DNA of 62,899 bases, the filler included, from Basidioascus undulatus (lineage: Eukaryota), in assembly GCA_000826855.1 (NCBI GenBank). It is 8 parts of 8 records of this genome, joined end to end, with 100 filler letters (N's around TTAATTAATTAA, not from the genome) between each part and the next. Parts side by side here need not be neighbours in the genome. Positions count along the whole stretch, not along the records: positions 5,302 to 10,489 come from JTLS01001988.1; 7 more parts are not named here. The stretch is one strand, 5' to 3'. The notes beneath the pieces were generated by a model. The model saw nothing but the letters and a program-made list of their open reading frames with translations, made no database searches and was not told the origin of the DNA. Both the position numbers and the translations under genes were made by a program. Of the stretch, positions 4,020 through 59,721 are shown one piece after another (within the stretch, counting starts at the first letter, position 1; each line of letters begins with the position of its first letter).

Positions 4020-5201
4020 ATGTGCGTCGCTTTCCATCCTGCCCGGCCGCGCACTCGTCCGCTCATCTCTGACCTCCCCCGCCTCAGGACCCGCTACACC
4101 AACATCGGCCGCAAACGGACCTACGTCGAAGCGACCGGCTTCGTCCCCCGCTCCCCCTCACCCGGTCCCCAGCCCGAAACCTCCGCCGCTGCCGCCACCG
4201 CCGCACCGGAGCCCACAGCGGACGCGGAAGGCGCACCGGCGGACGGCGAGCCGCCCAAGAAGAAGAAGCGCATCCGCAAGTCAGCGAAGAAGTACAAGCG
4301 GGCCGCAGAGCGTGCTGAGGCGGAGGCGGCTGCGAAGGCCAAGGCTGAGGTCGAGGGCGGCGAGGCAACTGGGGAAGGTGAGGGGGAGGGTGAGGGTGAG
4401 GGCGAGAAGAAGGAGAGTGGGCCGAAGAATGCGAAGGAGCGGAAGAAGGAGAAGCGGAAGAGGGAGCTGAAGGCGCAGCTGAAGGCGCAGAGGCTTTCGG
4501 CGAAAGGTGCGGAGATCATTTCTTGGCTTCGTACTGGAGAGGCGGAGGAATGGGGGCTGATATGGAGGGATTGGGATCGGTCGGGTCGCAGAGCGCTCCG
4601 AGCAGCGCAGGCAGGCACGCATCACCGAGCGCAACGCCACGACGACGTGCTTTGCGTGTCGGGAGCGCGGGCACTCTGCGCGGGACTGCCCGCGGGCGCT
4701 CGAGGGCGAGAAGGCGGGATTAAAGGGCAGCGAGATGGTCGGGATCTGCTACAGGTGCGTGCTGCCACTTCTCTCAGATAGTCATGCTGAGATTGGACTG
4801 ATTGCGGCTCGGTCCGGGTGGTGGTGGTTGCTGTAGATGCGGTTCGACCGAGCATGCCCTGCGCGACTGCAGGGCCCCTCTGCCGAAGAAGGGCGGCTCG
4901 CTCCCGTTCGCGTCGTGCTTCATCTGCTTGGAGAAGGGCCATCTCGCCTCGAAATGGTCAGTTATCGCTGTTCCTTCTTTTCTCACCTCTGCTCGCCTCA
5001 CATAGCCACCTCTTCCTTTTAGCCCCAAGAACCAAGGCCGCGGCGTCTACCCCACCGGCGGGAGCTGCAAGATCTGTTCGTCGGTCGAGCACCTTGCGAA
5101 GGACTGCCCGACGCACCAGCCCCGTCCGTCTCCCCCTTCCCTCCCTCCCCCTCCTTCCTTCTTTCCCCCTTCCCCCTACGCGTTCACCCCCCGCCGCCGC
5201 C
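4020..5201 (+). CDS. CCHC zinc-knuckle protein (ZCCHC9-like), 3' end truncated by gap
   Basis: N-terminus MTRYTNIGRKRTYVEA, a K/E-rich region, then four knuckles across exons: CFACRERGHSARDC, CYRCGSTEHALRDC, CFICLEKGHLASKC, CKICSSVEHLAKDC. Confidence 0.85.
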
Positions 5202-5301
5202 NNNNNNNNNNNNNNNNNNNNNNNNNNNNNNNNNNNNNNNNNNNNTTAATTAATTAANNNNNNNNNNNNNNNNNNNNNNNNNNNNNNNNNNNNNNNNNNN
5301 N
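5202..5301. other. Artificial contig linker
   Basis: N44-TTAATTAATTAA-N44, which gives stops in all six frames. Confidence 0.99.
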
Positions 5302-5823
5302 CCCATTCTCGTGGGCTCACAGTCAACCTCACCACGTGGCAAGTCCACCCTGATTAAATTGGGGCAAGTGTACCTGCTCCTCCCAAGAGCCCTCGGCTTG
5401 CACAGCGATGAGGTCCGCAGACATTTTGGCGGTGAAAATGGGGGAAAAGGGGGGCGGGAAGGGAGAGGGGACGAGCGGAAGAGCGCGGTGTAAGGCGAAC
5501 AAGAGCAAGGAGGAAGGCCACCTTTCAAAGTAGCGCGGGCGAGAAGACGCTGACTAAGCACGTCAACCGGTCACTGACAGCTTCACAGTCGCGGCAGCCA
5601 CAAAATATGACAGTCACTTTCTGCGCCAGGCCAACATAACTGGGTGTTTAGATTCCATATAACGGTATAAAACATCATGCAACGTAATACATGCGACCGG
5701 CCAGGCGCGAGCGTTGCGCATACAGCACAGTGGACGACGACAGCGACTATTCACCTTCAACAAGCCTGCAGCCCCTCGACTTGAAACAGATTCATCATGG
5801 AACTCATGCATCAAAACCTCCCC

Positions 5824-7002
5824 TCACTTCAGCTCAGCCATCAACGCCAGCCTCTCCTCCCTCTCGCGCTTCTCGATCCTCGCATGCCTCCTCCATCCTT
5901 TCCCGAGCCCGTCCTCATGCCTCTGCCTTCTCGCGCGCTCGCACTCAATCTCACGCACCTCCGCAGCAGTGTACGTGATCTGCTTGCGCTTCTTCGAGGA
6001 CGCCTTGAGGCCGATGCCGAGCCGGTCGGCCTTGAGGTGCACGGCGATGGGCGTCACGCGCGGGCGCTCGGAGGGCGGCAGGTTGGCAGAGGCGGCGGCG
6101 GGGGAGGGTGCGGTCGGGCGGAAGATGGAGTCGGGTGGTGTGGGCGAGCGGGAGGAGCCGAGGGAAATGGGCGAGTCGGAGCGGTGGAAGGTGGGCTTGA
6201 CGTCCTCCTCGCCCTCCTCATCCGAATCGCCTGTCAGGTCCACCACCTCCCTCTCCTTCCCCTTCCCTCTCCCTCCGCCCTTCTCCTGCTCCCTCTTCAC
6301 CACACATTCCCTGGGGCGTGCGCCCCTCCCCAAACCCTCGCCCTCCGTCCACCCCTGCCCAGCTAGCATCGCGTACCCCCTGTTGCCCGGCCCCAGCGCG
6401 AGCCACGGCGGCGGCTCGTAGCGCTCCGTCCCGGGCAGAGGGGGCGGGTCGGACGCGATGAGGTCCGCGAGCGACGGGGGAGTGTTGGTGCGCGTTGTGG
6501 GCGCGGAGGAGGCGAGGGAGCGGGTGATGAACCACGTTGGGTCGCTGCGGCGTGAGGCGGACGGGCGTAACGAGTGTGAACGACGCGGTGGAGGAGCGGA
6601 CCTCGATGGGGGAGGAGATGCCCGAGAAGAAGGACCCGCTTCTGCCTCCCTCTCCTCGCCCAACAGCGCAGCGTAGAACCCCCTCGCCATCTGCACCTTA
6701 TCCTTCCCTCCCTCCGACCCCAACCCAGGCTTCGCCGCGCCCCCGCCAACTGGGACGCCATACTCGTCCACCGCCAGCGATGCCTTAGTGAACTTGATAG
6801 GCCTGCGCCGGCGCAGCTGCGGGCCGTACGTGGGCTGCTTCCACGCGTCGTCGTCGGGTGGTGGGGCGCTGGGCCCGGCGACGGGCGCGGAGGAGACCGA
6901 GGAGGGGTCGTCGGTCTGCTCCGGTGCCGGAGGCGTGCGCGAGCGGATGTACACCGCTGGGGGCCACTGCGGGATCGGAGGGGGGGTGGCGGAGCGTGAC
7001 AT
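5824..7002 (-). CDS. G-patch domain protein (single exon)
   Basis: Long ORF containing the G-patch motif LGPGNRGYAMLAGQGWTEGEGLG...PIAVHLKADRLGIG. Likely start is MSRSATPPP at 7002. Confidence 0.8.
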   Translation of the reverse strand: MSRSATPPPIPQWPPAVYIRSRTPPAPEQTDDPSSVSSAPVAGPSAPPPDDDAWKQPTYGPQLRRRRPIKFTKASLAVDEYGVPVGGGAAKPGLGSEGGKDKVQMARGFYAALLGEEREAEAGPSSRASPPPSRSAPPPRRSHSLRPSASRRSDPTWFITRSLASSAPTTRTNTPPSLADLIASDPPPLPGTERYEPPPWLALGPGNRGYAMLAGQGWTEGEGLGRGARPRECVVKREQEKGGGRGKGKEREVVDLTGDSDEEGEEDVKPTFHRSDSPISLGSSRSPTPPDSIFRPTAPSPAAASANLPPSERPRVTPIAVHLKADRLGIGLKASSKKRKQITYTAAEVREIECERARRQRHEDGLGKGWRRHARIEKREREERLALMAELK

Positions 7003-7679
7003 GAGCGTTGGATATGGTGGCGACCGAAACGACGGGAGGTGATGTAGTCGAGAGATGAGAGGGAGAGGTGGGAGGGAGGAGGGCGAGGTCGACATTACGT
7101 AATGCAGCATGGCAGGAGTTTTAAGTGCCAAATTTCGGACTGTTTGAATCGCTTCGGACGTTGAGATGTCATCCATCTCTCAGCATAACTCCTGCATTGC
7201 TGACGGATAGGACCCTTCAACAGCCTCTCCGACTAGTGCTGCGCAGTCTAAGACTGCTGAACATCACCGACAACATGTCCAGATCCCGCTCCCCGAGGTA
7301 CGGCTGGTCTCAGTGAGCTAAGGCGAATCCCAGGGAATAAAGAGCAGCAACGAGGGCAGAACGGCACGAGTGCATCCACCAGTCTGGTGTTACGACTCGA
7401 CATTGCGGTCCTCAGCAACTCCCTGCCAGTGTTAGTTATCCTGCGCAGGCCTGCCGGGGGCTGCCGTCGCTGCAGTGCTTACTTGGTCTATGCACATGAA
7501 ATAGTGCGCAATTTGATCTCCCGAAGAACCCCAACCGTGAAGGAGTATCAGTAAATTCAAGTACAGCGGAGCTGCCGCCGAGAAACAGTAAAACAAACAT
7601 CGAGTCGCTGGTCAAACGGCACACAGCGCAAACAAGAAACATCATGCGATTATGAGCGGCAAGGAACAAAAGCGATAGC

Positions 7680-8260
7680 CTAAACCGAAGCTCTTCCATG
7701 TACAGCTTCTTCTAGTCCTCGGGGCGGAGACCGAAGCGCATTTCGCGAGACGAAGAAGCGGGAGGGGCGGTCACTGCGTTCGCGCCCGAGCCTCACATCA
7801 CACACGCCAGCCCGTCCTCCGCCAGAGCTCAGAGTTTCGGCACTCTCGAATCTTTCTTTCTTCTCCCGGTCCCAGTCCCAATCGACGCGAGGAAGCGAGG
7901 ACGCCTCGAACGGCCGGAAGAGTTGGGCGTTCTGAGTATAAGGATGCCCGTGAAGCTTCATAGCCTTGGAAGCTGGTATATGGAACAATGTTTTGAATTC
8001 AGGTTCGATAAATAACGGGAAGTACGCACTCAGCTCGTAATCACGGACAGGGCCTTCGACCTGCGGACACAGGAGATAGACGCCGACCATGACCTCCACG
8101 GTCCCACGAAGGTGCGAAAGCTTGGAGGACCAGAGTGCAGTAACACGGCCTATCCATAAAATCTCCTCGAAGTAGTCCCCGACGTCCTTAAGTCGCCTGT
8201 TTTTGAGAGGCGCCGAAGCGAAGGAGCCAAATACCAGCGTGGACAGGGAACAAACACGCT
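7680..8260 (-). CDS. Exon of a hypothetical protein (possibly BAH-like beta domain); gene may extend upstream toward ~10150
   Basis: Open frame ...DVGDYFEEILWIGRVTALWSSK...VEVMVGVYLLCPQVEGPVRDYELSAYFPLF looks globular, but I do not firmly recognise the family. Confidence 0.3.
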
Positions 8261-10423
8261 CGCGCAGAACGGTGGCGGTGAGTACGAACTCGGAAATGCA
8301 GGTGAATAATCTCTGGTTGGAAGCAGTTGTGGCGTTAGGTCTGGGCGTGGGGGACGGAACAGATCAGAGTAATGTCCGGCATGCTTTGAGGACAGTTTTC
8401 ACGTACAGAAATTCAGAGTAAGCAACGACCAGGGACTTCAGGATGTAAATCCTGCCTTTCGAACTTTCTTCGAGCTCGAGTGATGAAATAGTCGGGGTCT
8501 CACGCGCTTCATCACATTGCGCGACGAGGCGAATCTCTGGAAGCGAGCGGATGAGCGGGAGGATTTGCTCCCGAGTCGTATGCGACGAGGACGCCGGCGA
8601 CCGTGGAGTGTCGCATGCTCTTCGAGAACCCGGAGGACGGATTGAGTGAAGACCACCCGCCGTATGTCGTCGACGAGGAGGGCAAAGGCAGACCTGTGGC
8701 TGTCGAAAGGGTGCGGGCGGGCTCCGAAGGAGTAGTCCATGACCAGGAGAAGCTGAAGGCCGCCTGCGGAAGGGAGGGACTGTCTATCAAGGGATGGGGT
8801 ATTTGGAGCGGGGAGAGGCCGGCCATGGAGGGAGTCGGGCTTGCGAGGCGGCGCGGTGGGGGTGGACTTGAGAGGGGCGGGCGAAGGAGATACCATGGCC
8901 GGTTCGAAAGGGGCAGGCACAAGGTTTTGTGGAAGAGGGAATGAGGGAGTCGAAAGGAGACACTGAGGAAGCGGAGGTGTTGAGGGAGGGAGATGGCTGA
9001 ATGGCATGCCCCGCTGAGGCAGTCGTGTCGGAAGCACATTGAGGTCGGCATGAGCCTCCGCCTTCACTCCGCTCCTCGCTTTAACCATTCCATTCACGAT
9101 GGTCTAGACTCGAGTAAAGGTGAACCCAGAATATTCAAGTGCTACTACATAAGCACCCTCTTTCTTAATGGAGGTTCGCATCAGACTGTCGTCGCTCTCA
9201 GTCCCACATCAGCCCACCTCTTCCAGTTATTTCGAATGTCCTGCCCTCGAGGGTCAGCCTAAGTAGGGTGCAATGTTCCGAAGAGCAATATAGATCATTC
9301 ACAAGGGCTACGGAAAACAAAGGTGGGTCTCACTTGTGAGGGCCGAACTACGAGCAGAAGTTTCGGGCAGTCCCGACTGGATGCTTTCGACCGCACTGCG
9401 CTCTTGTCCCCATCCTGCAGTGTCGCTTTTGTACCGCGTAAGAGGACAATTATTAGGGCACTTAATTTGCCCGTGCATCATGTATGCGCCATAATCCCCC
9501 TGTCTCCCACCGTCGCACAGTCAGCATTCACGTTACAACAGGCTGTCTGCGACCCTGCGGTTCATCGAGCTCACCCTGATACAACACCTTTGATTCGCCG
9601 CTACCTTTAGCCGACTTTAGCATCGCTTCTTCTTCCGCCTGACTTTTTTTTTGGACTCCACTCTTCCCCTGCATTTTCCGCTCCGGAGGAGCAGAAGATG
9701 CGGAGCGGAGAAAAAAAGAGAAAGGCAGTCCGAAGGTGAGAGACGTTCGGCAGTCCAGCACGATGATTGCGGCGCACACTAGCGTAAAGTGTCGCAGGCC
9801 AGTCTGATGCGATTCTGACACACGGATCAGGCTGGGCTATCTTCCCCTGCAGACTGCGGCATTCTGACTGGGGAGAGGTACGCTGCATAAAGCCGTCCAC
9901 AGTCCGCATAAAGCAGGGCGGAGCGAGAGTAGCGCGCGGCTTGACCAGTTAAGTAAAGTATCGTGAGACAATTGTTAGGAACTGACGTGCGAGTGCGGCG
10001 TCGCGAGCCAGCTAAAGGAGTCGGACGCGATTCTGACATTACGTTCACCGGTACGTATCCAACTTGGCTTACAATCGGACTGACAGGAGCCGGAATTGGA
10101 ATTGGCATGATCTTTGCCGTCATATTATGAAAGGCTGCTGTGAGCGAGTTCATTGTCTGGATAAATCTGCGAGTATACTGGGTTGTAGCAAAGAGCAGCG
10201 GGCGGAAAGTCTGTACTTCATGATGATCGCTCAAAGTCGAGTCGGGTTTGGCAGACTCTACGCGATCTCCGTTACTTTACTCTAAAAAAAGGGGGATTTC
10301 TACACAGGTAAAACAGGCAGTCTTGTCAATCCCCCTCATGGTCGACAGCTTGGCTGCCAGCTGCGGGTGGACAAGCGGGAAGGCGAGCGTTGCCGTCCGG
10401 CAGAATACCAGCTTTTGTGACGC

Positions 10424-10429
10424 AAAAAA
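10424..10429 (-). terminator. RNA polymerase III oligo(T) terminator
   Basis: T6 on the minus strand, separated by one C from tRNA position 37. Confidence 0.7.
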
Positions 10430-10430
10430 G

Positions 10431-10489
10431 TCGTAGTCAGATACTCTACCATTGAGCCAGCCGGCCGTGACCGACGCAGGGATCGAACC
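10431..10489 (-). tRNA. tRNA-Arg(ACG), apparently circularly permuted (3' half upstream of 5' half); upstream part lost in gap
   Basis: Minus strand reads GG TTCGATC CCTGC GTCGGTC A | C | GGCCGGC TG GCTC AATGGTA GAGT A TCTGA CT ACG A | C TTTTTT. GGCCGGC (10466-10460) pairs with GTCGGTC (10475-10469). The D-arm is intact and the anticodon ACG is at 10434-10432. Confidence 0.8.
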
Positions 10490-10589
10490 NNNNNNNNNNN
10501 NNNNNNNNNNNNNNNNNNNNNNNNNNNNNNNNNTTAATTAATTAANNNNNNNNNNNNNNNNNNNNNNNNNNNNNNNNNNNNNNNNNNNN
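10490..10589. other. Artificial contig linker
   Basis: N44-TTAATTAATTAA-N44. Confidence 0.99.
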
Positions 10590-11313
10590 GTCTTCATCCA
10601 TCTTGCATCTTGACACCAACCCTGCTGGTAGTCCCCGCTGCGGTCTGTCTTACCCAGTCAAGTCCTGACAAAGTCTGCCTTCAGCCTTTCCAGGCCTGCC
10701 TTAACCATACAACCAACCAGCTCAGTGTAGTGGATCTGAGATGAGCACCTTGGCTCTAAATTGCGTGTTTACTTCTATACACAATTGCAGCACCCTGTCC
10801 ACAACTTTTGAATCGTCGGCGTAGCGATAACCTGGGTCATCATGTTCTGTACCACTCATGAGAATAAACGCTGGACTAGTTGGTACCCCGTTTCCCCCTC
10901 ATATTTCTGTACTCCCCTGACTTCTATAAATCGGCATTTAGTCATACACTCCTTCGCAGTTAACTTTCAACTCAAGACGTCGACGCTTGAAGTGTATGTC
11001 TCTTGACAGTGACGGGCCGGGGTGGCCCACTCACTTTTCTCGCCCGCAGCCTATACCGTTTCTGCTACATCCCCCGGGATCGTTTACCATGTTATGAGTA
11101 ATATACTCTGGAATTGAAACCAGAAGGACAAGCACAACCCGCTACTGGTTCCCTGTTGAAGCTCCAAACAAACAAACGACAAGTCAAATGACGTCAACTC
11201 AGACAGTCTTCCTCATTCCCGTCGCGCTTGGTCGTGCTCCCGCTCCGTTTCTGCTCCTTTTCCTCTTGCCCTCATCTTTACTCATCTCATCTCATCCAAT
11301 CCCAGCAACAGCG

Positions 11314-15198: not shown

Positions 15199-15690
15199 CA
15201 CTCTCCCGCCTCTTCCAGCGCCCGCAGCGCCTCCTCTACCCCCGCCGCGACGTCCCTCATCTGCTCAAGCACGCCCCCGCCCTCCGCAACGCGCGGCAAG
15301 AGCGTATGCAGTGCAGCCTGCATTCCCTGGTCCGTCTATCCACATCCACCCCAATCGTCAGCCGCGCGTTCCCGTCAAAAAAAGAACCAGCCAAAAGAAA
15401 CGCACCGGCACATCCCCCCTTCGGTGCCCCTCCTCCCCCGCCTCGCCCTCGCACCACGCCTCCCTCGCGCCCTCCAGCCCTTCCAACCACCCCATCGCCG
15501 CGACGCGCTCCTCGCGCTCCGCACGCTCGCGCGCCCAGCGCTCCTCCACCGCGCGCATGCGCCGCCCGACGTCCGCCCGCTGCTTCTGCACATCGAGGAC
15601 CTGCGCGCGGAGGGCCTGCTTCGCCAGGCGCGCCGCGCGCAGGGAGGAGAGGACGGTGAGGAGGTGCGTGTGGGATTGCGTCTGCGGGGA
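15199..15690 (-). CDS. Hypothetical coiled-coil protein, 3' part only (5' lost in gap)
   Basis: GC3-rich helical exon HLLTVLSSLRAARLAKQALRAQVLDVQKQRADVGRRMRAVEERW. The frame of the last exon is ambiguous. Confidence 0.45.
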
Positions 15691-15776
15691 GGGAGGGTTA
15701 GTGAAGGAGAGGGAAAAGGGGGTGGTGGATGGGTTATCGGGACGAGTGGCTTGGCTAGTGGCGTTGACGGTGAGGT

Positions 15777-15876
15777 NNNNNNNNNNNNNNNNNNNNNNNN
15801 NNNNNNNNNNNNNNNNNNNNTTAATTAATTAANNNNNNNNNNNNNNNNNNNNNNNNNNNNNNNNNNNNNNNNNNNN
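15777..15876. other. Artificial contig linker
   Basis: N44-TTAATTAATTAA-N44. Confidence 0.99.
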
Positions 15877-16474
15877 CTGGATAGGGGAGGGGGGTCAGGG
15901 AGGGTGCGAGTGAGGTGAGGGCTGGTTTTGGGAAGGAAGAGCTGGCGAGGTGCGTGAGGGGTTGGTTTGGGAAGAGGGAGTGGGGAAGGAGGGAGGAGGA
16001 GCTGGAGCTGGAGCGGGAAGAGGAGGAGGATGGTGATGACGGGGAGGGGGGAAGTAGTTGTTGATTTCCGCCTGTCGAGAGGGGGTGAGTGAGGAGGTGG
16101 GGCGTGGGGATGTCGACGAGGAAGGGGAGGGCGCACGTATTTAATATAGTACACGTTGGTGGATGGTTCGTTTGTGGAGGTGGGTAGGAGGCTGTCATTT
16201 TTGGTATGGATGTCGGTGTGAGAGTGGGATGTGGATGTGGGGAGAGAAGGGGGTATGGGACGGAAAGAATGGAAGGAGGGAGGGCGATATCGAGTGCGCG
16301 TCCTTGACGCGCGCCCGGCACTTCGGCGAGGGGGACTTCTGGCAGCCAGTGTCGAAACTGGAATTCGAGGCTGTCGGGTTGGACAAAGGACGACCTTGAG
16401 CTGCTTCCACATCGACCACGACCACGTTCATTCTCCAGATACCGTCGTTTCTTCTTCTCAGATACCCATCAACT

Positions 16475-21898: not shown

Positions 21899-24800
21899 AT
21901 GGGTGGAGACCACGCTTGCTCCCTATGTGGCGCAACATTTACTAGGCCGCAACACGTCTCCCGTAAGTGATCCACAAAGGACTTTCGGTGGAGCCGCCTC
22001 CGGCGACGGGGCGTCGTCGTGGAGCCTCATCCTGTCCTTCGGTGAACCCCCGCTAACCGCTTCCCGTTTATTCTATGGTTTTCAGGGCATATGCGCAGCC
22101 GTGAGTCGTCTTCTTCCTTGGGGAGGGCAATCCACGCCGGTGGATGGGAGGGCACTGGACGGGGCAAGGATCGTCGCCCTCTCGTCTAGTGATCGACTCG
22201 CCGATGAGCAATCGTCTGCATTACTACACCTCCTTCAGATGGACGATAGTACACCAGAGGTGTAATAATCGAAGCAATGTCGAGTGCCTGAGGGATGGCC
22301 GCTGTAATGTTGTGGTTATCGTGAACGACGTCGCGACGATCCCTTGAGCTCACACGCCCAGCCCTCGCCTGCAGACACGGGCGAGCGTCCATACCCCTGC
22401 ACCATCTGTTCGGAATCTGTGCGTTTGACATCACTCTTCATGGTACCTATGCATTGTGAACGCCTGTTGACCTGTCTTGTTTTTGTTATTCAGTTTTCTC
22501 GCAGGTGAGCCTTGCTGTCGTCACCTGGCCTGCTTCTCAAATCTTCGCGGCATCGTCATGCGGTTCTTCGTCGTGCACATTGCACATCTTCCTTCGCACC
22601 ACAGCGCATCGGTGTGTTGGATTGACGTTGGGAACGTTGTCATCACCGCGGTCGTTGGTCGTCGACAAGCCCAACATGTTACGAGGAACCGTTGACTAAC
22701 CTCCACCTCGCGTCCTGCCCATTTCACTTTCGCAGCGACCTCCTCGCCCGACATCAATCCAAATGCCACCCCGAACATCCTCTTCCTCCAAGACGCGGCG
22801 GCGGCAAGCGCGGTCCACGCAAGAACTCCAACCCGACCGCGTCCACGTCGGCCCCTCCAGGTGACGGCGGCTTCACGGCGACACTGCCACTCGGCGGTGT
22901 CAACTTTGGCGCAGCACCGTCGGCGTCAGTACCTCCGTATAGCTCGTCGCCGGCATCGTCATCGCGCAGAACGAGCGAAGACGTCGTCCAGCAGACGATC
23001 GTCAACGAGTATGGGGAGTCACCGTATGGTACGGTTTTTGTCCTTTTTCCAGGCCCGCCTACGCTCGACGCTTACCTGCAATGTGTTTTCACAGCGTACA
23101 ACACCGCTATGGGATCGAGCGCCTCGGTGCTCTCTCCACCGTCGTTCGGCACGTCATCTCGGTCGGGCTCAGGCAGCGACTCCAGCGCCTCGCCCGCGGA
23201 CGTGAGCAACCCGGCCACGCCGGCTTTCAGCCACGCCGAACCGGACGCCGCACCGTACCAATATCTTGGACAGGGACGCGGCGGCGTGCCGGTGTCTTAC
23301 CTCGCCCACCGCGTATATCCCGACAAGGCCGTCGATGTTTACGGCGAGCCCTTCTACAGCCTCCCGGACGGTCGCATGACCGTCCCGGCAGAGCCTTACG
23401 CGCCTTCCCAATACCCGCCCCTGCCGCCGGCACCTGCGTCGTCAGGCTGGAGTGTCCCGCATACCGCAAGCCGCGCCACGAGCGAGAGCGGCTCCAGCTC
23501 GGTCGCGCCTTCGCTCGGGCGGCAGACGTCCCCGATCGTGTACCCGGCATCGCTGCCTCGGTCCTCGACCGACCTTTCGCTCTATCCGCCCGCATCCGAC
23601 CAATCCTCCACCTTCGCTGCCGTCACTTCCTACCCTCCGACAACTGCGTCCTTCACCGCGCCCGTGACAACTGCGAGCGTGTCATTGCCTGCCTCCTCAT
23701 CTGCGCCCGCGCTCGCAATGGCGTACTCGCAGGCCGCCCCGCCGCAGACCGCGGGCGCGTACATCTCGCATCCGGACCCGCAGTACATGGGCCAGCACCA
23801 GCCGCGGTCCGAGTATGGCGTGCAGCATCAGCAGCAGGGGCAGTTCCCGACGACGCCGCTCGCGTTCAACCTCCCCATCTCGCCGATGGCAACGTACGTT
23901 GCGGGCACATCCTCTGGTGCCGCGCAGGAGGTTCCGCCACCGCCGCCGTCGGCGTTCGTGTCCTCGTTCCTCGACCAGCTCGCGCTCGACGGCTCGCTCT
24001 CTGAGCCGGAGCTCGGCGGGTACTCGTACACGTCGTTCCCGTTCGCGGCTCCCGTCGACGCGTGGCAGGGCGACGCGGAGGAGCAAGCCCGCCGGCAGCA
24101 ACACCGCGTCGTTCGCGAGATGTGGAAGGAGTTCGTCTGCGAGCCGTTGACGAACAGCACCGCCGTCGGGCTTACCCCCGGCCCGGGTCCGGGGCCCCCA
24201 CCCATGGTCGGTCCGCTCGGCGAGCACCTCGAGTCGCCTGTCGCGGCGGCGCCCTCTTCGCGCCCATTGTCCACGGAAGCTGCGGCGCCAGCGAGCAGAC
24301 CCCCCATTCCGACGCCTTCACCCTCCTTCACCCGGGCTTCCATGTCCGCGATCCCTTCATCCGCGCCTCTCGAGCCCCACACCCTCGCCGTCACTCCTCG
24401 TCGAACGTCCGCCCCTGTCGAGTCCTACTCCGCCTCCCTCACCTTTGCCCCCATCTCCGATCCCGCACCCGCTCCTTCCGACGCCTCCTACCCTATCCAC
24501 CCCCTCCCGCCTCTTCCGCCCGCACCCAAAGTCACGCCTGTATCTGCCCCGCGACAACCGCCCGCTCCGCCCACGCAGATGCATCAGCCGTCCGCGGACG
24601 CGAGCGTAGAGGACCTGCGCGCGTACGAGCGCGCGTGCCTCACTCGCGCAACGCCCGTCCTGCGCCTCGTGCCCAGGAGCTGGAAGCGCGCGGGCACCGG
24701 CGGTGCATCGCCGAACGCGCTCTTGAACGCGTTGGGCAGCACGTCGCTCGGCGACAATTACGGCAACGGCGAGCGCGGCGGTGAGGCCCCACCTGTATCG

Positions 24801-25154
24801 GAGCCGACCAGCGCGCTGTCTCAGCATGCCAAACGCGAGCTCTCGACGCCGTACGACCTCGCCGACGTCAAGCGGACGGCCTTCTCGCTCCACACGCCGC
24901 TGAGTCCCCCGGACGACGAGACGCTGCAGGGCGGCGAGGGCGCAACGTCGCGGGCGCGCGGACCGAGCAGGCAGCTCTTCGCGGCTTCGCTCTCCATCCC
25001 TTCCGCACTTGCTGGTCCGTCTGCTGCGCCGAGCCCGGAGGACCGCCCGAAAGCTCTGTTGCCGGGCACGGACGCGTCGAATGCTCGCACAGCCGCCGTC
25101 GCCGCCGCTGCTGCTACCCCCGTCGCTGTCTCTTCCTCTTCCCCATCCTCATGA
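21899..25154 (+). CDS. C2H2 zinc-finger transcription factor (two N-terminal fingers, long P/S/A-rich tail)
   Basis: Exons 21899-21962, 22086-22100, 22375-22418, 22494-22504 and 22736 onward splice to MGGDHACSLCGATFTRPQHVSRHMRSHTGERPYPCTICSESFSRSDLLARHQSKCH. All intron phases are compatible. Confidence 0.92.
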
Positions 25155-41803: not shown

Positions 41804-41903
41804 NNNNNNNNNNNNNNNNNNNNNNNNNNNNNNNNNNNNNNNNNNNNTTAATTAATTAANNNNNNNNNNNNNNNNNNNNNNNNNNNNNNNNNNNNNNNNN
41901 NNN
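41804..41903. other. Artificial contig linker
   Basis: N44-TTAATTAATTAA-N44. Confidence 0.99.
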
Positions 41904-42668
41904 TGCCCTGCCCGCGCCAGCCCGCGGTGGGGGGTGCCGCCGCCGCCCGTGCTGGATGGGTCGACGCTTTCGCCTGAAGTGCGCTCGTCGGTAGGTAACA
42001 AGCCGTCCAGCTGCTGGTGTTGGATTCTTTTTCTTCTTCGCAGTTTGTACTACCTTCTCTTTCTCGTTCTTTTGCCGCTTTAGTTGCCTTTTCTACGCTC
42101 GCTTCGTTGTTGTCTGATACCCCTATGAGCATCGCATTGCATCTTGCTGATTGGGCTGCTCGACGTCTGAACTGTGCGATGCCCAAGCATCCAAGTGCCT
42201 GAACGCGACCAAAGATTTCCGATCCATTTCGCGTTGAGGGAGATTCTCGAGGTGACCGGTTCTGTTGTATTTGTTGACCTTGAAGTGTTCTGATTGGAAA
42301 GAAAGGGATTGAAACGGCGCTAGTTGAAGCATGACGAAGTGAGCGATCGCGAAGGCAACGTTACGTTTCAGAACGCGCCCTTGCCGCGCAGGAGGTCGCC
42401 TTGGGTCGCCAGGCGCTGGACAACTTGGACTCTGCTCACGCCCACTGCGGCAGCTCGATCTTTTGGGCTCGACGACCTTCACGCTTCCTTTTTTAAGACG
42501 ACGATCTAGAGCAGACTTACACGACACTCGATACGGCGTGCCAGCTCACGACTCACGACTCTCCTCCTCGCTATCCGCGGGCTTGTCGAGCCCACAGCTC
42601 GTTCAGTGACCCCGCGCGCCCGCTCCCCCTCTCCCTTCCCCCACGCTGGCACCCCCGGCGTAACCGCG

Positions 42669-45600
42669 ATGGACTCGCTGTTCCGGTCGACTAAGAAAAA
42701 GTCGCGGCAGCAGCGGCAGTCGACGGACCCCGCCGAGGGCTCGGTGCCGTACGACCGCCTCGACCCGGCGACGCGCTCGCCCATCCCCGTCCACACCATC
42801 TCCTCCCGTGGCTCCTCTGCCAGCGTCGCGCCCTCCTTCATCTCCGCGCCCAACACGAACCCAACCCTCAGCGCGTCCGGCACCGACGTCAACCTCCACA
42901 CCCTCGGGGCAAGCGCGCGCGGGAGCGCAGGCTCCAGCAGCCACCACCGCCGCACGGCGGGCGGCGGAAGCGAGGACAGCGGCGATGGGAGAACGACGGT
43001 GCGCAGCCCGACGGTGAGCAGCTTTGGGAGCACGGGAGGGAGGAGGTCCCCTTACCATTCTGGCGCGGGCGCGGGCGGCGGCGGGCCGGAGGACCCCCCC
43101 GGCCGGATGGGCCCGCCGCAGGGGGGCGGCGTGTCCGCAACGCTCGCGTCGGGGGGTCGAAGACCCTCGCGCAATCCTGCACCGCCGTCATCCGACACCG
43201 CCTCGGTGCGCTCTGCACGCTCGTCCCAGTTCTCCTTCGCAACGTCCGAGCTGGCACAGCGCGCGCTCGCGGACTTTGGGCTCTCCCCCTCCGGCACACC
43301 ACCCACGACCGCCTCCGCCTCGCATCGCTCCTTCGGGTCCTCCTCCACGCTCTCCCATCACCGCAGCGGCGGCGGTGGCGCGGCGGTGAACGACGTTGCC
43401 TCGCTGTCGTCGGAGGAGGTCGAGGCGCGCTTCGAGCGCCTTGTCGCGAGCGTGACGCAGGGCGGCGGCGACGCGGCCAAGCTCCGCGCCGTCTCGCTCG
43501 AGAACAAGCGCGCTATGCTCCAGAGCTACAACGTCCAGCAGAAGCAGGCCGTCGAGGGCAGCCGAGCCGGACACTCCCCCGAGTGGTACATCCGCAAGTT
43601 CGTCAGCGGGACGGTCGTGCATACGGATGTCGGGCACTTGGCGGTTAGCTTGCGGACGATGCCGATCGAGTGAGTTGGTTTTCAGATTTGGGATGTATTG
43701 GAATGTGGCGGGTGATTGGGGCTGGTTGGATGTGGCGCTGTGATGGGGTGCTGACTGCTGCCCGTTTCACTTCGTCGCAGATGGCTACGGGAGTTCATCC
43801 AGTGCAAGGGGCCTCATGTTCTTGCAACTGCATTAGAGAAGATCAACCACCGGACAGTACGGTACGCCATGGGTTTCTTGTGTGGCCACGCATGCTGCAG
43901 CTCATCCTACTTTCCTGCACGCAGACGAGAAGGCGACGCTGCGCTCGAGTCAGAGATCCTGAAGTGTTTCCGCCATGTCCTCAACCATACTGTAAGTCTC
44001 AAAGTTTGATTGTGTTAAGAGGAACACTCCGCTGACAGAGTCGATGCAGCTCGGCGCGACAGATGTCACGTCTCAGCCCGACGCAGTCTACGCCATAGCC
44101 GCGTCGATCCTCAGCCCCCAGCTCCTGACGCGCAAGCAGGCGGCCGAGATCCTCGTCTTCCTCTCGTCATGGGAGAAGCCGCACGGGCACCACCTCGTCA
44201 TGACCGCCTTCGACAAGCTCGCCGAGCAGTGGAACGACCCGGCGCGCTTCGACCCGTGGCTCAAGGCGTTCGAGAGCACGATCGACGGCCGCGGACGCAT
44301 GGGCAGCATGGTCGGCGCGAGCGAGGAGCTGCGCAAGGCGGTCACGGCGGAGCAGTCACTCATCGACTATGCGGTGCGTGCTGCTTGGATGCGGCTGTCT
44401 TTGTTCTGCACTGAAATTTTACTAACGCGACGCGCTCTTTTTTGCTTCACAGGCCATAAATCTCATGCTCGTCAACCAGATCCTGGACCTCGACGACTCG
44501 GATGTCCGTGTGCACCTTCGCACGCAGCTCGAGGCGTCCGGCATCAAGCGGATCTTCGAGAAGCTCCGGACGCTACGGAGCCCGAAGCTGGAGGACATGA
44601 TGGTCACGTACGAGGAGTACGCGGAGGACGACTTCGAGTTCCTCGTGCAGTCGCAGCGCGCGCAGCTGCTCAAGGACCTTCGAGATCCAGAGGACGTCTT
44701 CCGCGCGATCCTCGCGCAGGTCGAGGGCTCGCGGGCCGCTGACTTCTTTCTCGCGCTCCTTCAGCACCTCCTCCTCCTCCCGACCGACTCGGAGCTCCGC
44801 ACGCGCTACCTCCAGCTCATCGACAGCCTCGTCGCGGGCGTCGTTCTCGACCGCAAGGGCGTCACGAACGACTTTTCGTCCCTCGCCAATGTCTCGGTCA
44901 GCAGCGTCATCTCGCGCTTCGCTGACCAAGACCGGCTCCAGAAGCTCGAAGAGCAGCTCGAGGCCGAACGCGGCACGACGTACAAGCTCCGGCGCCAGAA
45001 CGAGGAACTCCTCGCCGAGCTGCCCTCCGCCGCGGGCGGCGGCGGCGCGGACGCAGGCGCGGTCGTGGCGCTCAAGGCGAAGCTGAAGGAGACGGAGGAG
45101 GCGCTCCACATCTCGCGCAGCGCGACGATCACCGTGCAGAGCAAGATGGACGACATGGAGGCCGAGCTCAACAAAAAGATCGCCGAGCTCGAGTACCTCG
45201 TCCGCGAGCTGTTCGCCATGCTCAAGCAGCTCGGCGGGTTCGAGGGCTTCCTCTCCGCCAGCGACGTGGCCACGGACACCAACCATCTCGAGCGCGCAGA
45301 GCTCGTCGCCGATCTCGAGCGCCGACTCGCTCGGCAAAAGACCGTCCGCAAGCTCGAGGGGCTCGGCGACGGTGCCGCTGCCTCGGGTAGGTCGCCGCCG
45401 CTCCCGAACGACCTCCCTTCGTCCGCATCCGATCCGTCCGGTCTCACTGACGCCGCCGAGATGGACGCGCGCTCAGCTGCTGCGGGCGGAAAGGGCGGGA
45501 AAGGCGGGAAAGGCCACGATCGCGCGCAAAGCCTCGGGCGATCGTCGCAGTTCATGGACGCGGAGGACGAGCGGGTCCGGCAGCACATCGAAGACTCGCT

Positions 45601-46400
45601 CGCGACGGGCGTGCGACAGCTCTACCCCGTGCGCCCGAATGGCGTCGACCGCGCCAGAGTACCTTCACCTCGCTCCATCCGCTCGCGCGACCTCGTTCCG
45701 CACGGCGACGACGACCCTTCCCATCGCCGAGCGCTCGTCCGACCTCAGCTTCGCGCGTCCATCGGAGGTCCGACCTCGTCCAGAAGTCCCACACCCGGCG
45801 CGGCTGGCTCAGCGGACAGCCTCAGCCCGAGCGCGCCGGGCACGCCGACCGCGGGGCTTCGCTCGTCGAAGCGGCTTCCGAGTGGGCTCGGTCCAGGGCG
45901 CAACCTCAGCCTGCTGGTGGAGATCCGGAACCGGGGGAAGCGCACGCCGTCGGGGACGCTGCTCAACTCGGACGGCGTGCCCATAGACGAGGATGCGCCC
46001 TTGCCACAGGTCGACGAGGAGACGGGCTCGGATGACGGCGCGAGCGAGGCAACGCGCATGCGCGGCAGCGGGTTCACCGCACGCAGCGACGACACGCAGG
46101 TCACGAGCGTCGCGTCTGTGGACCTCGCTAGTCGCGGCGTCAACAGCTTCGAAGCAATGCTGCAGCAGAAGGCGAAGGCGCTGCGCCGCGCTGGGGAGAC
46201 TGACGATGACGTGCCGTCGAGCGGCCAGGTCTCCCCACCGCTGCCGACCCTCGCGGAAGAGGCAACACCGTCATCCGCTGCTCCCCCGCCGCCACCGCCA
46301 CCACCTCCCCCTCCTCCATCGATCGCTGGCGTCAACGGCGGCTTCCCCCTTTCCCGTCCTTCCTCCCCTTCCCCTGCCCCTCCGTCGTCCCTTCTCTCGT
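42669..46400 (+). CDS. Diaphanous-related formin (SepA/Bni1-type): GBD/FH3, coiled coil and start of FH1; FH2 absent
   Basis: SPEWYIRKF...LAVSLRTMPIE|WLREFIQCKG; FESTIDGRGRMGSMVGASEE; RVHLRTQLEASGIKRIFEKL; LLQHLLLL...RYLQLIDSLV; polyproline at ~46283-46320. Confidence 0.9.
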
Positions 46401-46554
46401 ATGTGGCGTGCTGCGAGATGTGCACCCGTTGCTAGCGCTTATATGTCATGACCGCTTCGCTGCAACTGCGTTTGGAAGTGCAACAGAATTGGGAATGAAA
46501 ACCCTAGAAGGTCTTCACCGTCTGACGCTTCCTTCTCCTTCCTTTCCTTCGCAG

Positions 46555-47083: not shown

Positions 47084-47183
47084 NNNNNNNNNNNNNNNNN
47101 NNNNNNNNNNNNNNNNNNNNNNNNNNNTTAATTAATTAANNNNNNNNNNNNNNNNNNNNNNNNNNNNNNNNNNNNNNNNNNNN
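47084..47183. other. Artificial contig linker
   Basis: N44-TTAATTAATTAA-N44. Confidence 0.99.
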
Positions 47184-52361: not shown

Positions 52362-52461
52362 NNNNNNNNNNNNNNNNNNNNNNNNNNNNNNNNNNNNNNN
52401 NNNNNTTAATTAATTAANNNNNNNNNNNNNNNNNNNNNNNNNNNNNNNNNNNNNNNNNNNN
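52362..52461. other. Artificial contig linker
   Basis: N44-TTAATTAATTAA-N44. Confidence 0.99.
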
Positions 52462-53173
52462 GGAGGGGGGGTGCGGGGAGGCGGATGGGCGCGGAGGGGG
52501 AGCGGTGGGGAGGGAGAGCGGTGCGGCGCGCTTGGAGGTTGACGAGGAGGAGGAGGCGGAGGCCGCGCGGTCGTACGTTAGGTGCAGGATCGAGTTGAGT
52601 CGGTCGAGGGTAATAGTCTGTCCGTCGAAGGAATGGAGGGATGAGCCACAGGACGGAGAGAGGGAGATGGGATGGAGGAGGATAGGACGCACGCCGGTAG
52701 ATTCGTCGTAGATGAGCACGCAGTCGACCTCCCTCGCAGGCTGGATCGACCCCGTGAACACCGCATCGCCGTTCTGTGCGCACACCAATCAGCATATTCG
52801 CATCCGAGCACAAGCAACGAAAACATACAGCCGTAGAAGGCAGCTCAACGCGCACGGTCGTCTCCCTTCCCTCATCCACCTCCAACCTTCCCTTCTTCCT
52901 CCGATCCACGCTCTCCGGTCGGAAGTTATCTGCCCTCCCCCAACGCACCTCAATCAGCTCTCTTCCCCTCTCCTCTCCTCTCCAAATGCTCTCCCCCAAT
53001 GTACATCTCAGCGCATAGTGCTCGTCCGCCCCGTCCGGGGCAGCACGCTTCTTGCCCGCCCCCGAAGCGGGCGGGGTGCCCCCCCGCTTGGACTGGAGGA
53101 GGCTGAGGAAGGCTGGGCCGAGGGAGACGGGCGTGGACGTTGATGGCCAGTTTGAGAGCGCGGCGTCGGACAT
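52462..53173 (-). CDS. EAF: ELL-associated factor (EAF) N-terminal domain protein, 3' truncated
   Basis: PVSLG...HYALR|YNFRPESVDRRKKGRL...|VFTGSIQPAREVDCVLIYDESTG|TITLDRLNS. Confidence 0.85.
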
Positions 53174-57634: not shown

Positions 57635-57734
57635 NNNNNNNNNNNNNNNNNNNNNNNNNNNNNNNNNNNNNNNNNNNNTTAATTAATTAANNNNNNNNNN
57701 NNNNNNNNNNNNNNNNNNNNNNNNNNNNNNNNNN
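57635..57734. other. Artificial contig linker
   Basis: N44-TTAATTAATTAA-N44. Confidence 0.99.
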
Positions 57735-59721
57735 CGAGTCGCGCCCCGTTGCCAAGCGCGCGGGAGACGCCGTCTTCACGGGCACGACGAACCTCGGCGC
57801 GCCCGTCGTCCTCCGCGTCACGGCCGTCGGCGGGGAGACGATGATCGACCGGATCGTGCGCATCGTCGCGGAAGCGCAGGGGAGGAAGGTGTGCCTTTGT
57901 CGCCGGTTTCAACTCGCGCTGCTGCTTTGAGTACTTGCTGACCTTGGAGTTGGACGCGGCCGGCAGGCACCGATCGAGAAGCTCGCGGACGCGATCGCGG
58001 GCGTATTCGTCCCCGCCATCGTCGCCATCGCGCTCGTCACGCTCGTCGTCTGGCTCGCGGTGGCCGTATCAGTCGACACGCTGGACGGCAAGACGGACAG
58101 GGGGGACAAGATCTTCTTCGCCATCCAGTTTGCGATCGCGGCGCTCGTGTGAGTGTTCCAGAGTCGCTTCAGGCTGTCATCGTGCGTGCATAGGAGCGCT
58201 GACTGACGTTAGCGCTTTGCTGGTGCGTGGGCGGATGGACAGCATCGCCTGCCCTTGCGGGATCGGGCTCGCCGCGCCGACAGCCCAGGCAGTTGGCAGC
58301 GGTCTTGCTGCCAAGTACGGCGTCCTTGCGCACGGCGGTGGAGAGGCGTTCCAAGCTGCGACGCAGGTGGACTGTGTCGTGTTCGATAAGACAGGCACGC
58401 GTGCGTATCCTCCTCGCTCCACACTTTTTTCCATCGGAGGGAGGCGAGCTGACGTGTTGGTCGAGACGCAGTCACTACCGGCGACCTCACCGTGACGGAC
58501 GAGACGATCCTCCTCCCCGACATCAGCGCGGAAGTCGCCGCCCCGCTCTGGAGCGCGCTCGCCCAGCTCGAAGACGGCTCGACGCACCCCCTCGCGCAGG
58601 CAGTCCGAGCCACCGCACGCGCGCGCCTCGCATCGCTCGCGTCTGTCCCGTTTCCACGCCTCCTCTCGTCCGAAGAAGTCCCCGGACGGGGGGTCATGGG
58701 CGTCTTTCAGTGTGTCGACACGGCGGGCAAGATCGAGGTCCGCGTCGGAAACGAGCAGTTCATGGACGGCGCGGCGCCCCTCCACCCGCGCACCACGACG
58801 CTCCTCGACACCTGGAAGGGCGACGGCAAGTCGGTCGTCCTGGTCTCCGTGCGTGCCCTCCAGCCCTCCGCGCCCTCCACCAGCGGCTTCACACCCCTTG
58901 AGGGCCAGTCGACAGTCGCCTTTGTCCTCGCCGTCGCGGACGCTCCGCGCCCTGAAGCGGCGTCGACCGTCTCCGCCCTGCGCAGTTCCGGCAAGGCGGT
59001 CTGGATGCTGTCTGGCGACAACGCCATCACAGCGCGGACCGTCGCGCGGCAGGTCGGCATCGAGGACGCGCACGTCATCGCGGACGTCCTGCCCGCGGAG
59101 AAGGCGGAGCGCATCCAGTGGTTGCAGGCACATGCGGGCATAAAGACTGGGGCCGCTGGAAGGAGGCTGGGGAGGTGGTTCACGAGGAGGAAGGGCAAGG
59201 CGGAGAGGGAGACGCGCGCGCTGGTGCTCTTCTGCGGGGACGGCCTCAACGACGCGGCAGCGATCGCTATGGCCGATGTTGGGTGCGTCGTACCACTGCC
59301 GCATCTGCTTTGTTTCTGGAGTGCTTACCCTTCCGTCGTTCTCGGCTATTCGCAGCGTGGCCATGGGCACCGGATCCCAAGTTTCCGTCTCCTCAGCTCA
59401 CGTGCGCCTTCTCCCTCTTCTCTCCCCCTTGCTTCGCTAGACTCCTCATAAGTCGTCGCTGTCCAGTTCATCCTGCTCCACTCGACGCTCTCCTCCCTCC
59501 TCACGCTCCTCTCCCTCTCGCGCAAAGTCAAGTGCCGCATCGCGCTCAACTTCGCCTGGGCCTGCATCTTCAACGTCGCCGCCATCCCGCTCGCCGCGGG
59601 CGTGTTCTACCCGCTCGGCGTGCGCCTGCCCCCCGTCTACTCGGCCCTCGCGATGGCGCTGTCGAGCGTTAGCGTTGTGGGGTCTAGCTTGGCGCTGCGG
59701 CTGTTTAGGCCTCCGCAGTAG
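57735..59721 (+). CDS. P1B-type copper-transporting ATPase (Ccc2/ATP7-like), 5' truncated
   Basis: ES.PV.K...GTTN; IACPCGIGLAAPT; FDKTGT; HP; MLSGDN; DVLPAEKA; GDGLND; NFAWACIFN; AMALSSVSVV. Confidence 0.95.

Follow-up and report, generated by a model that had tools for sequence, protein, structure and literature searches.

Only red and green algae, a nucleomorph and archaea have permuted tRNA genes on record, as far as the excerpted text of two reviews from 2014 and 2026 goes (PMC3978253, PMC13578239). The closest described counterparts of the locus presented here are the type II genes of Ostreococcus, Micromonas, the Bigelowiella nucleomorph and Cyanidioschyzon merolae, which, like it, carry the 3′ half upstream of the 5′ half on one strand. 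In the same partial text of the 2014 review, these genes also share with our locus a break after nt 37 (37/38), a T-stretch after the 5′ half, a terminator-free spacer and a CCA that is not encoded, and their intervening sequences measure 1-74 nt (PMC3978253). Our locus departs from them in several respects: its host is a fungus, whereas none is on record outside algae and archaea in those excerpts; its spacer is a single base without an encoded CCA; it apparently exists in tens of copies, where the algal genes are single; one run has a stub of the 5′ part upstream; and the circle is putative. Soma 2007 and Maruyama 2010 are reportedly the names attached to type II (37/38) permuted genes. As here, a single intervening nucleotide is also described as separating the 3′ end from the 5′ end in the permuted tRNA-Tyr(GTA) of Thermofilum pendens, which differs, in the portion of the review that covers it, in being an archaeal single gene, broken at 59/60, with an encoded CCA and hence a longer acceptor loop (Chan, Cozen and Lowe 2011, via PMC3978253). 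No fungal permuted tRNA gene appeared among the titles and abstract openings of the literature searched, which agrees with an earlier note on this DNA that knew of no fungal example.

In yeasts, dimeric tRNA genes such as Arg-Asp in S. cerevisiae and Ser-Met in S. pombe are co-transcribed. They resemble the present locus in that two units on the same strand, only a very short spacer apart, end at a shared terminator, but both of their units are complete and encode different tRNAs, whereas here the second unit ends at nt 37, with no T arm after it, and is cognate to the first. Among basidiomycetes, the excerpted account of Helenus (TRIMp3) describes miniature LTR retrotransposons, their LTRs tRNA-like, from Pucciniales and some Agaricomycetes, and thus, as here, a dispersed, multi-copy, tRNA-like sequence in basidiomycete genomes (PMC10886601). 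According to the same excerpt, Helenus has paired LTRs, a primer-binding site, a polypurine tract, 5-bp target duplications and the normal tRNA-like order (PMC10886601). In contrast, the order here is 3′ end then 5′ half, the end is a T-run, the flank is single-copy, and no 11-mer of the feature has a second copy in the adjoining 5.1 kb; the upstream side lies off the contig.

The window, by which we mean the whole stretch of 62,899 nt analysed from the fungus Basidioascus undulatus, consists of 8 contigs, of which one measures 25.9 kb and the other seven ~5.2 kb; between them stand linkers of N44 + TTAATTAATTAA + N44 at 5202-5301, 10490-10589, 15777-15876, 41804-41903, 47084-47183, 52362-52461 and 57635-57734. 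Because it is a chain of separate contigs, adjoining stretches are not genomic neighbours. A feature with the layout of a permuted tRNA-Arg(ACG) gene occupies the right end of the 5188-base contig at 5302-10489, where the minus strand reads, from 10489, T-loop, T-stem, acceptor 3′ strand, A73, C, nt 1-37, C and T6. Its parts are as follows, with reference to contigs from public runs (X1, X2 and X3) that are described below.

10476-10489, minus strand: remainder of the tRNA 3′ half, G52 G53 + T-loop TTCGATC + CCTGC; the contig ends here
Within 10476-10489, minus strand: T-loop with the B-box-like GGTTCGATCC, and T-stem 3′ strand CCTGC, from sequence anatomy
10469-10475, minus strand: acceptor 3′ strand GTCGGTC, nt 66-72, pairing 7/7 with 10460-10466
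10468, minus strand: discriminator A73, from sequence anatomy
10467, minus strand: one-base spacer C between A73 and G1; the junction is present in a 53-nt X1 contig with 0 differences
10431-10466, minus strand: complete tRNA-Arg(ACG) 5′ half, nt 1-37, from Rfam and anatomy
10430, minus strand: C directly after A37, first base of the trailer; other loci align through this C into the T-run
10424-10429, minus strand: T6, a Pol III terminator-like run; likeness to other copies stops at 10419-10426

From G1 (10466) to A37 (10431), the 5′ half reads GGCCGGC, TG, a D arm of GCTC/AATGGTA/GAGT, A, TCTGA and CTACGA; it contains an A-box-like TGGCTCAATGG, and TCTGA and CTACGA are the 5′ strand of the anticodon stem and the loop, with the anticodon ACG. 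All seven acceptor positions pair (10469-10475 versus 10460-10466), with 5 Watson-Crick and 2 G-U pairs, a result with a chance expectation of ~0.001, and the D stem is paired 4/4, with 3 Watson-Crick pairs and 1 G-U. Taken in isolation, the 5′ half matches the Rfam tRNA model RF00005 over positions 1-36 as a 3′-cut match with 16.9 bits (E 0.072), a score below the gathering score of 29. Neither ARAGORN nor an Rfam scan called a whole tRNA in the region, as is expected for a rearranged layout; over 10000-10900, Rfam gave two chance matches only, to mir-784 (E 0.83) and a snoRNA (E 5.1), and for the lone 22-nt 3′ piece only a chance match to a CRISPR repeat (E 8.3). The fold stability of the 66 nt did not exceed that of shuffles (z 0.59), a test that is uninformative on the cloverleaf because the fragment does not include nt 38-51.

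Runs of at least six T or A occur 26 times in 62,283 window bases, so a T6 that begins two bases past nt 37 is not a chance expectation. The spacer joining the 3′ half to the 5′ half has no terminator, and nt 52-73, C and nt 1-37 lie uninterrupted on one strand. The T arm GGTTCGANNC has its sole window occurrence in the feature itself, and there is therefore no 3′ half in the 5.1 kb downstream; the other 11-mers of the 66 nt do not recur in the window either, bar one chance match at 45801. A long-intron reading was discarded for this locus, since the supposed intron would begin with a T6 and no T arm follows within 5.1 kb. The layout that the earlier note had read from the minus strand (3′ end, A73, C, 5′ half) thus holds base by base, at what is indeed the true right end of contig 5302-10489; recomputation returned its acceptor counts of 5 Watson-Crick and 2 G-U pairs, the 5′ half does end at nt 37 and pass into C and T6 (10431-10424), and its statement that no 3′ half follows stands, the T arm not being repeated in 5.1 kb.

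The contig that carries the tRNA feature also encodes a G-patch domain protein (5827-7179, minus strand), for which the nearest Atlas clusters are mostly basidiomycete. A formin gene with Diaphanous GBD and FH3 domains, at 42510-46432 (plus strand), is spread over three or more open frames, in keeping with an intron-bearing fungal gene, and an open frame at 58453-59448 (plus strand) has a HAD-type hydrolase domain (PF00702, E 1.9e-14) and could be a piece of a larger enzyme. The Pfam domains (G-patch, formin GBD/FH3, HAD) point to a eukaryote, and for two of the frames the Atlas clusters closest to them most often belong to Basidiomycota, which makes a fungus a reasonable lead without proving it. 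The longest open frame (22626-25151, plus strand; 842 aa) has no Pfam match, and the same holds for the remaining long frames on the 25.9 kb contig. Purine-only or pyrimidine-only contig ends (GGGAGG-like or CCCTCC-like) were noted at 5110-5201, 15690-15776, 15877-15970 and 52462-52550, and such low-complexity ends probably caused the assembly breaks.

The layout is not confined to this contig. At 90% likeness, 38 contigs of X1, 39 of X2 and 4 of X3 aligned to 10090-10489; X1 and X2 have contigs of 3014, 1818 and 1235 nt in common, may represent the window's own source and are counted as one source, which is not independent of the window. Contigs of this kind, from which variants have been dropped, show presence and not absence, and summed k-mer depth is no true copy number, the copy-equivalents given here being rough. 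In X1, where unique flank sequence has a k-mer depth of 16.4 and the flank contig ends at 10448, inside the 5′ half, the junction is carried by a 53-nt contig at a depth of 298.3 with 0 differences (~18x the unique flank) and by a 56-nt contig at 175.4 with 1 difference (~11x). The bin at 10482-10489 holds exactly 4 X1 contigs with a summed depth of 508.8, versus 16.4 for the flank, and besides the two high-depth contigs it includes two of unique depth with 6 and 4 differences. Judged roughly from depth, this amounts in X1 to ~29 copy-equivalents of the junction, with two diverged copies on top, and the same rough estimate for X2 (1605.1 versus 50.1) is ~32.

Contigs that leave the unit on its downstream side extend this picture. 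Ten of the 38 X1 contigs match the 5′ half, the C and 4-6 T's and then diverge at 10419-10426 into five different flank consensus strings; over X1-X3 there are 7 distinct strings, and at least 11 contigs lie on the downstream-flank side. A 3014-nt contig of unique depth joins its own flank to a T-run, the 5′ half and the junction (10422-10474, 3 differences), and another of 4220 nt runs from flank to junction (10424-10489, 6 differences) and 17 letters beyond. The copies differ by 1-6 letters, 26 of the 38 X1 contigs being at least 99% alike, and their trailers range from T4 to T6 and longer matches. The layout thus recurs at many loci with unrelated downstream flanks, and since both high-depth contigs and two diverged ones carry the junction, it cannot be put down to an assembly error or to an accident peculiar to this locus. 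Identity that ends at the terminator is the pattern of a gene family. In 3 of the 7 flank strings, a further T-run of at least 6 follows within 30 nt, where ~0.006 per string would be expected at the window rate; these extra runs resemble backup Pol III terminators, a hint that is weak because two of the three strings are the consensus of two contigs. The earlier note had guessed at multiple copies, and the junction contigs at 11-18x unique depth and the downstream-flank contigs, at least 11 in number, bear this out; a junction without support from reads, which it had named as a possible refutation, is countered by X1 contigs that span the junction, one of them with 0 differences. Beyond this genome, the junction pattern was found in metagenomes at 2 loci, both chance matches in a GC-rich, coding-looking stretch without a tRNA. 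The junction and the 5′-half motif each had 0 matches in prokaryote genomes and viral contigs, and a search of literature text with a 15-nt D-arm string gave no relevant match.

Sequence upstream of the junction comes from X3. This run derives from the same sample as X2, with neither its kind (DNA or RNA) nor the strain on record, and contains almost no surrounding unique sequence, although one of its flank strings also occurs in X1 and X2. The high-depth junction contigs of X1 reach only 8 letters past 10489, and nt 38-51, which lie beyond the contig end at this locus, are known solely from X3. There, a 93-nt contig (at 10446-10489 on the window) fits the stretch twice with 19 letters between, which read on the tRNA strand TTGAG / A / TCAGG / GGGTT / GCA, an orientation chosen because it makes structural sense of the stems and loop. 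By eye, GCA + GG pairs 5/5 with CCTGC as the T stem and TCAGG pairs 5/5 with TCTGA as the anticodon stem, with one G-U; the variable loop has 5 bases, its terminal T opposite A15, and the anticodon loop is CTACGA + A38. The halves of this composite of window and X3 fold into one cloverleaf with four G-U pairs in all. The earlier note had predicted that the upstream side would read N38, the 3′ strand of the anticodon stem, a variable loop and GCA before GGTTCGATCC, and A/TCAGG/GGGTT/GCA is what X3 contains.

The X3 path also constrains what stands ahead of the 3′ half. Upstream of A38 is TTGAG, which is preceded by a 22-nt stub (nt 1-22) and not by a complete 5′ half, and the stub itself follows on the acceptor 3′ strand, A and C. 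The first 30 letters of the 93-nt contig equal its last 30, so that the path closes after 63 nt into a head-to-tail unit of nt 38-73, C, nt 1-22 and TTGAG, without nt 23-37. This contig, over TTGAG and A38, and a 45-nt X3 contig from the junction to A37 are both unbranched; in this run, then, nothing but the junction leads into the 5′ half, and no complete 5′ half stands ahead of the 3′ half. The earlier note gave a complete ordinary tRNA on the upstream side as a refuting observation; none was seen, X3 having nt 1-22 and TTGAG only. The TTGAG branch was not seen in X1 or X2 contigs. In none of the three runs does an aligned contig extend from A37 into nt 38 or reach G1 other than through the junction. 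The contig that enters from upstream (2580 nt in X1, 50,729 nt in X2) has a single place of fit on the stretch, with no second 5′-half match in its 2.5 kb and 50 kb, respectively, and no conventional Arg(ACG) gene is present among the 38, 39 and 4 contigs at 90% likeness, in what are presence-only data. The absence of a conventional neighbour and of an A37-nt 38 link is suggestive only, because contigs drop variants and a conventional branch with an overlap of ~30 nt may escape alignment. Inspection of the X3 leader by eye adds a possible anticodon-intron pair, between a G at -3 and C32, as well as central-helix pairing at 3 of 4 positions, the latter weak in that at least 3 of 4 has a chance of ~0.15.

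We favour the reading that this locus belongs to a multi-copy family of circularly permuted tRNA-Arg(ACG) genes, with the break at 37/38, the canonical site for introns, and tentatively assign it a probability of roughly 0.4. In such a gene, Pol III would transcribe the leader, nt 38-73, C and nt 1-37 and stop in the T-run, and the precursor RNA would fold into a cloverleaf open in the anticodon loop. The tRNA splicing endonuclease would then cut off the leader before A38 and the trailer (C + U's) after A37, and the fungal tRNA ligase would join A37 to A38 into a circle. A cut by RNase P between the spacer C and G1 would open this circle; with only one C between A73 and G1, this single cut would leave a 3′ end of A73-C. 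The CCA-adding enzyme could complete such an end, so that the C at 10467 could serve as C74, which would explain why a one-base spacer is conserved. This pathway is modelled on the algal permuted genes, as the partial text of the 2014 review presents them, and on established fungal tRNA splicing (PMC3978253). The 22-nt stub of X3 could have survived from the founding tandem duplication; it could also work as a promoter element, its A-box-like motif standing upstream of the B-box-like T loop.

The permuted reading builds on the gene order, the recurrence, the terminator and the lack of a downstream 3′ half, all of them observed, and on the fact that the halves belong together and break exactly after nt 37. 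CGC, CGT and CGA are the codons read by tRNA-Arg(ICG). In four Pfam-supported ORFs, 110 of 168 Arg codons are of these three kinds, and the organism therefore needs this tRNA. Against the permuted reading, the acceptor stem would be closed by A73 + C alone, which is tighter than in any described case without encoded CCA, and the tRNA that we infer has four G-U pairs. The 63-nt unit in X3 looks like a tandem repeat of crippled units, the excess of junction copy-equivalents over downstream-flank contigs suggests more than one junction per locus, and the upstream nt 38-51, the leader and any promoter of this locus are off the contig; moreover, no fungal permuted tRNA gene is on record. Of the earlier note's proposal of a permuted gene, the multi-copy state, the predicted upstream sequence and the failure to see a full tRNA have gained ground, whereas the X3 unit fits a tandem repeat equally well. 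The boldest form of the permuted reading, in which the major Arg tRNA is encoded only as ~30 permuted genes, matured through a circle by ordinary splicing enzymes with the spacer kept as C74, is slightly less probable.

We consider it unlikely, on balance, that the copies form a tRNA-derived repeat family without tRNA function, but this is the alternative that survives best. It would have begun as a decayed tandem duplicate of tRNA-Arg, in head-to-tail units, and spread as short arrays or via copying of a Pol III transcript, with arrays ending in the 5′ half and T-run. The X3 contig, which repeats its first 30 letters after 63 nt in a unit devoid of nt 23-37, is just such an arrangement, and the ~29-31 junction copy-equivalents set against 11 downstream-flank contigs suggest more than one junction per locus. 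The four G-U pairs of the inferred tRNA and the 1-6 letter differences among copies are likewise in keeping with decay, and interspersed tRNA-like repeats of basidiomycetes are known from the excerpted description of Helenus TRIMs (PMC10886601). Mobile-element hallmarks are nevertheless lacking, the unit ending in a T-run on the tRNA strand and not in poly(A) or TG..CA; its left flank is single-copy (depth 16.4), and the 5.1 kb contig has no second copy. A likeness of at least 99% in 26 of the 38 X1 contigs also speaks against this reading, as does the lack of a separate conventional Arg(ACG) gene among the aligned contigs, and identity that stops at the terminator, together with the further T-runs in 3 of 7 flanks, suggests selection on a Pol III unit. 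Two more specific forms were rejected: a SINE, since the terminal run is T on the tRNA strand and not poly(A), and a primer-binding site, since the left flank, where an LTR would be expected, is single-copy. Should the copies be a tRNA-derived repeat after all, they would represent an uncatalogued, new kind of basidiomycete tRNA-like repeat, one that tRNA finders miss or miscall.

In line with the co-transcribed, closely spaced tRNA pairs known from yeasts, the locus might comprise an ordinary tRNA-Arg(ACG) upstream, one base, a truncated duplicate of the 5′ half and then the terminator, in which case RNase Z would remove the 5′ half as no more than a long 3′ trailer. Unequal duplication would most simply give this layout; an intact tRNA 3′ end lies directly upstream, and the contig ends before a full gene could be excluded. 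We nonetheless judge it improbable, because X3 has only TTGAG before A38 and only the junction before G1, in two unbranched contigs. In the presence-only data of X1 and X2, moreover, no aligned contig passes from A37 into nt 38, and the upstream contig has no second 5′-half match in 2.5 kb (X1) or 50 kb (X2).

A little less probable than this is a working Pol III unit with a product that does not decode, for example pieces released by RNase P and RNase Z, or a U-tailed small RNA resembling a 5′ half. Conservation over multiple loci that stops at the terminator would suit such a unit, as would its A-box-like and B-box-like motifs, which the X3 stub arranges with the A box ahead of the B box. 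It has no precedent in the literature searched, however, and leaves the exact 37/38 break and the retained pairing of the halves unexplained. Finally, that tRNA fragments were falsely joined where a repeat broke the contig, as might be suspected from a feature at a contig end inside a repeat and from a unique X1 contig that stops at 10448, is very hard to credit when the junction is present in k=31 contigs at high depth with 0 differences and two diverged contigs of unique depth span it into their own flanks.

If the permuted reading is true, neither fungi nor any other opisthokont would have yielded permuted tRNA genes before, and this would be the first case of a whole multi-copy isoacceptor family being permuted. 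What is new, if they are permuted, is the kingdom, the one-base spacer and the multi-copy isoacceptor family. A fungal case would show that the standard opisthokont splicing machinery is able to mature permuted tRNAs, and that such genes have arisen repeatedly from tandem duplicates, with the upstream stub as a relic caught in the act. It would also show that annotations can silently miss an essential tRNA, and would give the circular pathway a genetically tractable kingdom.
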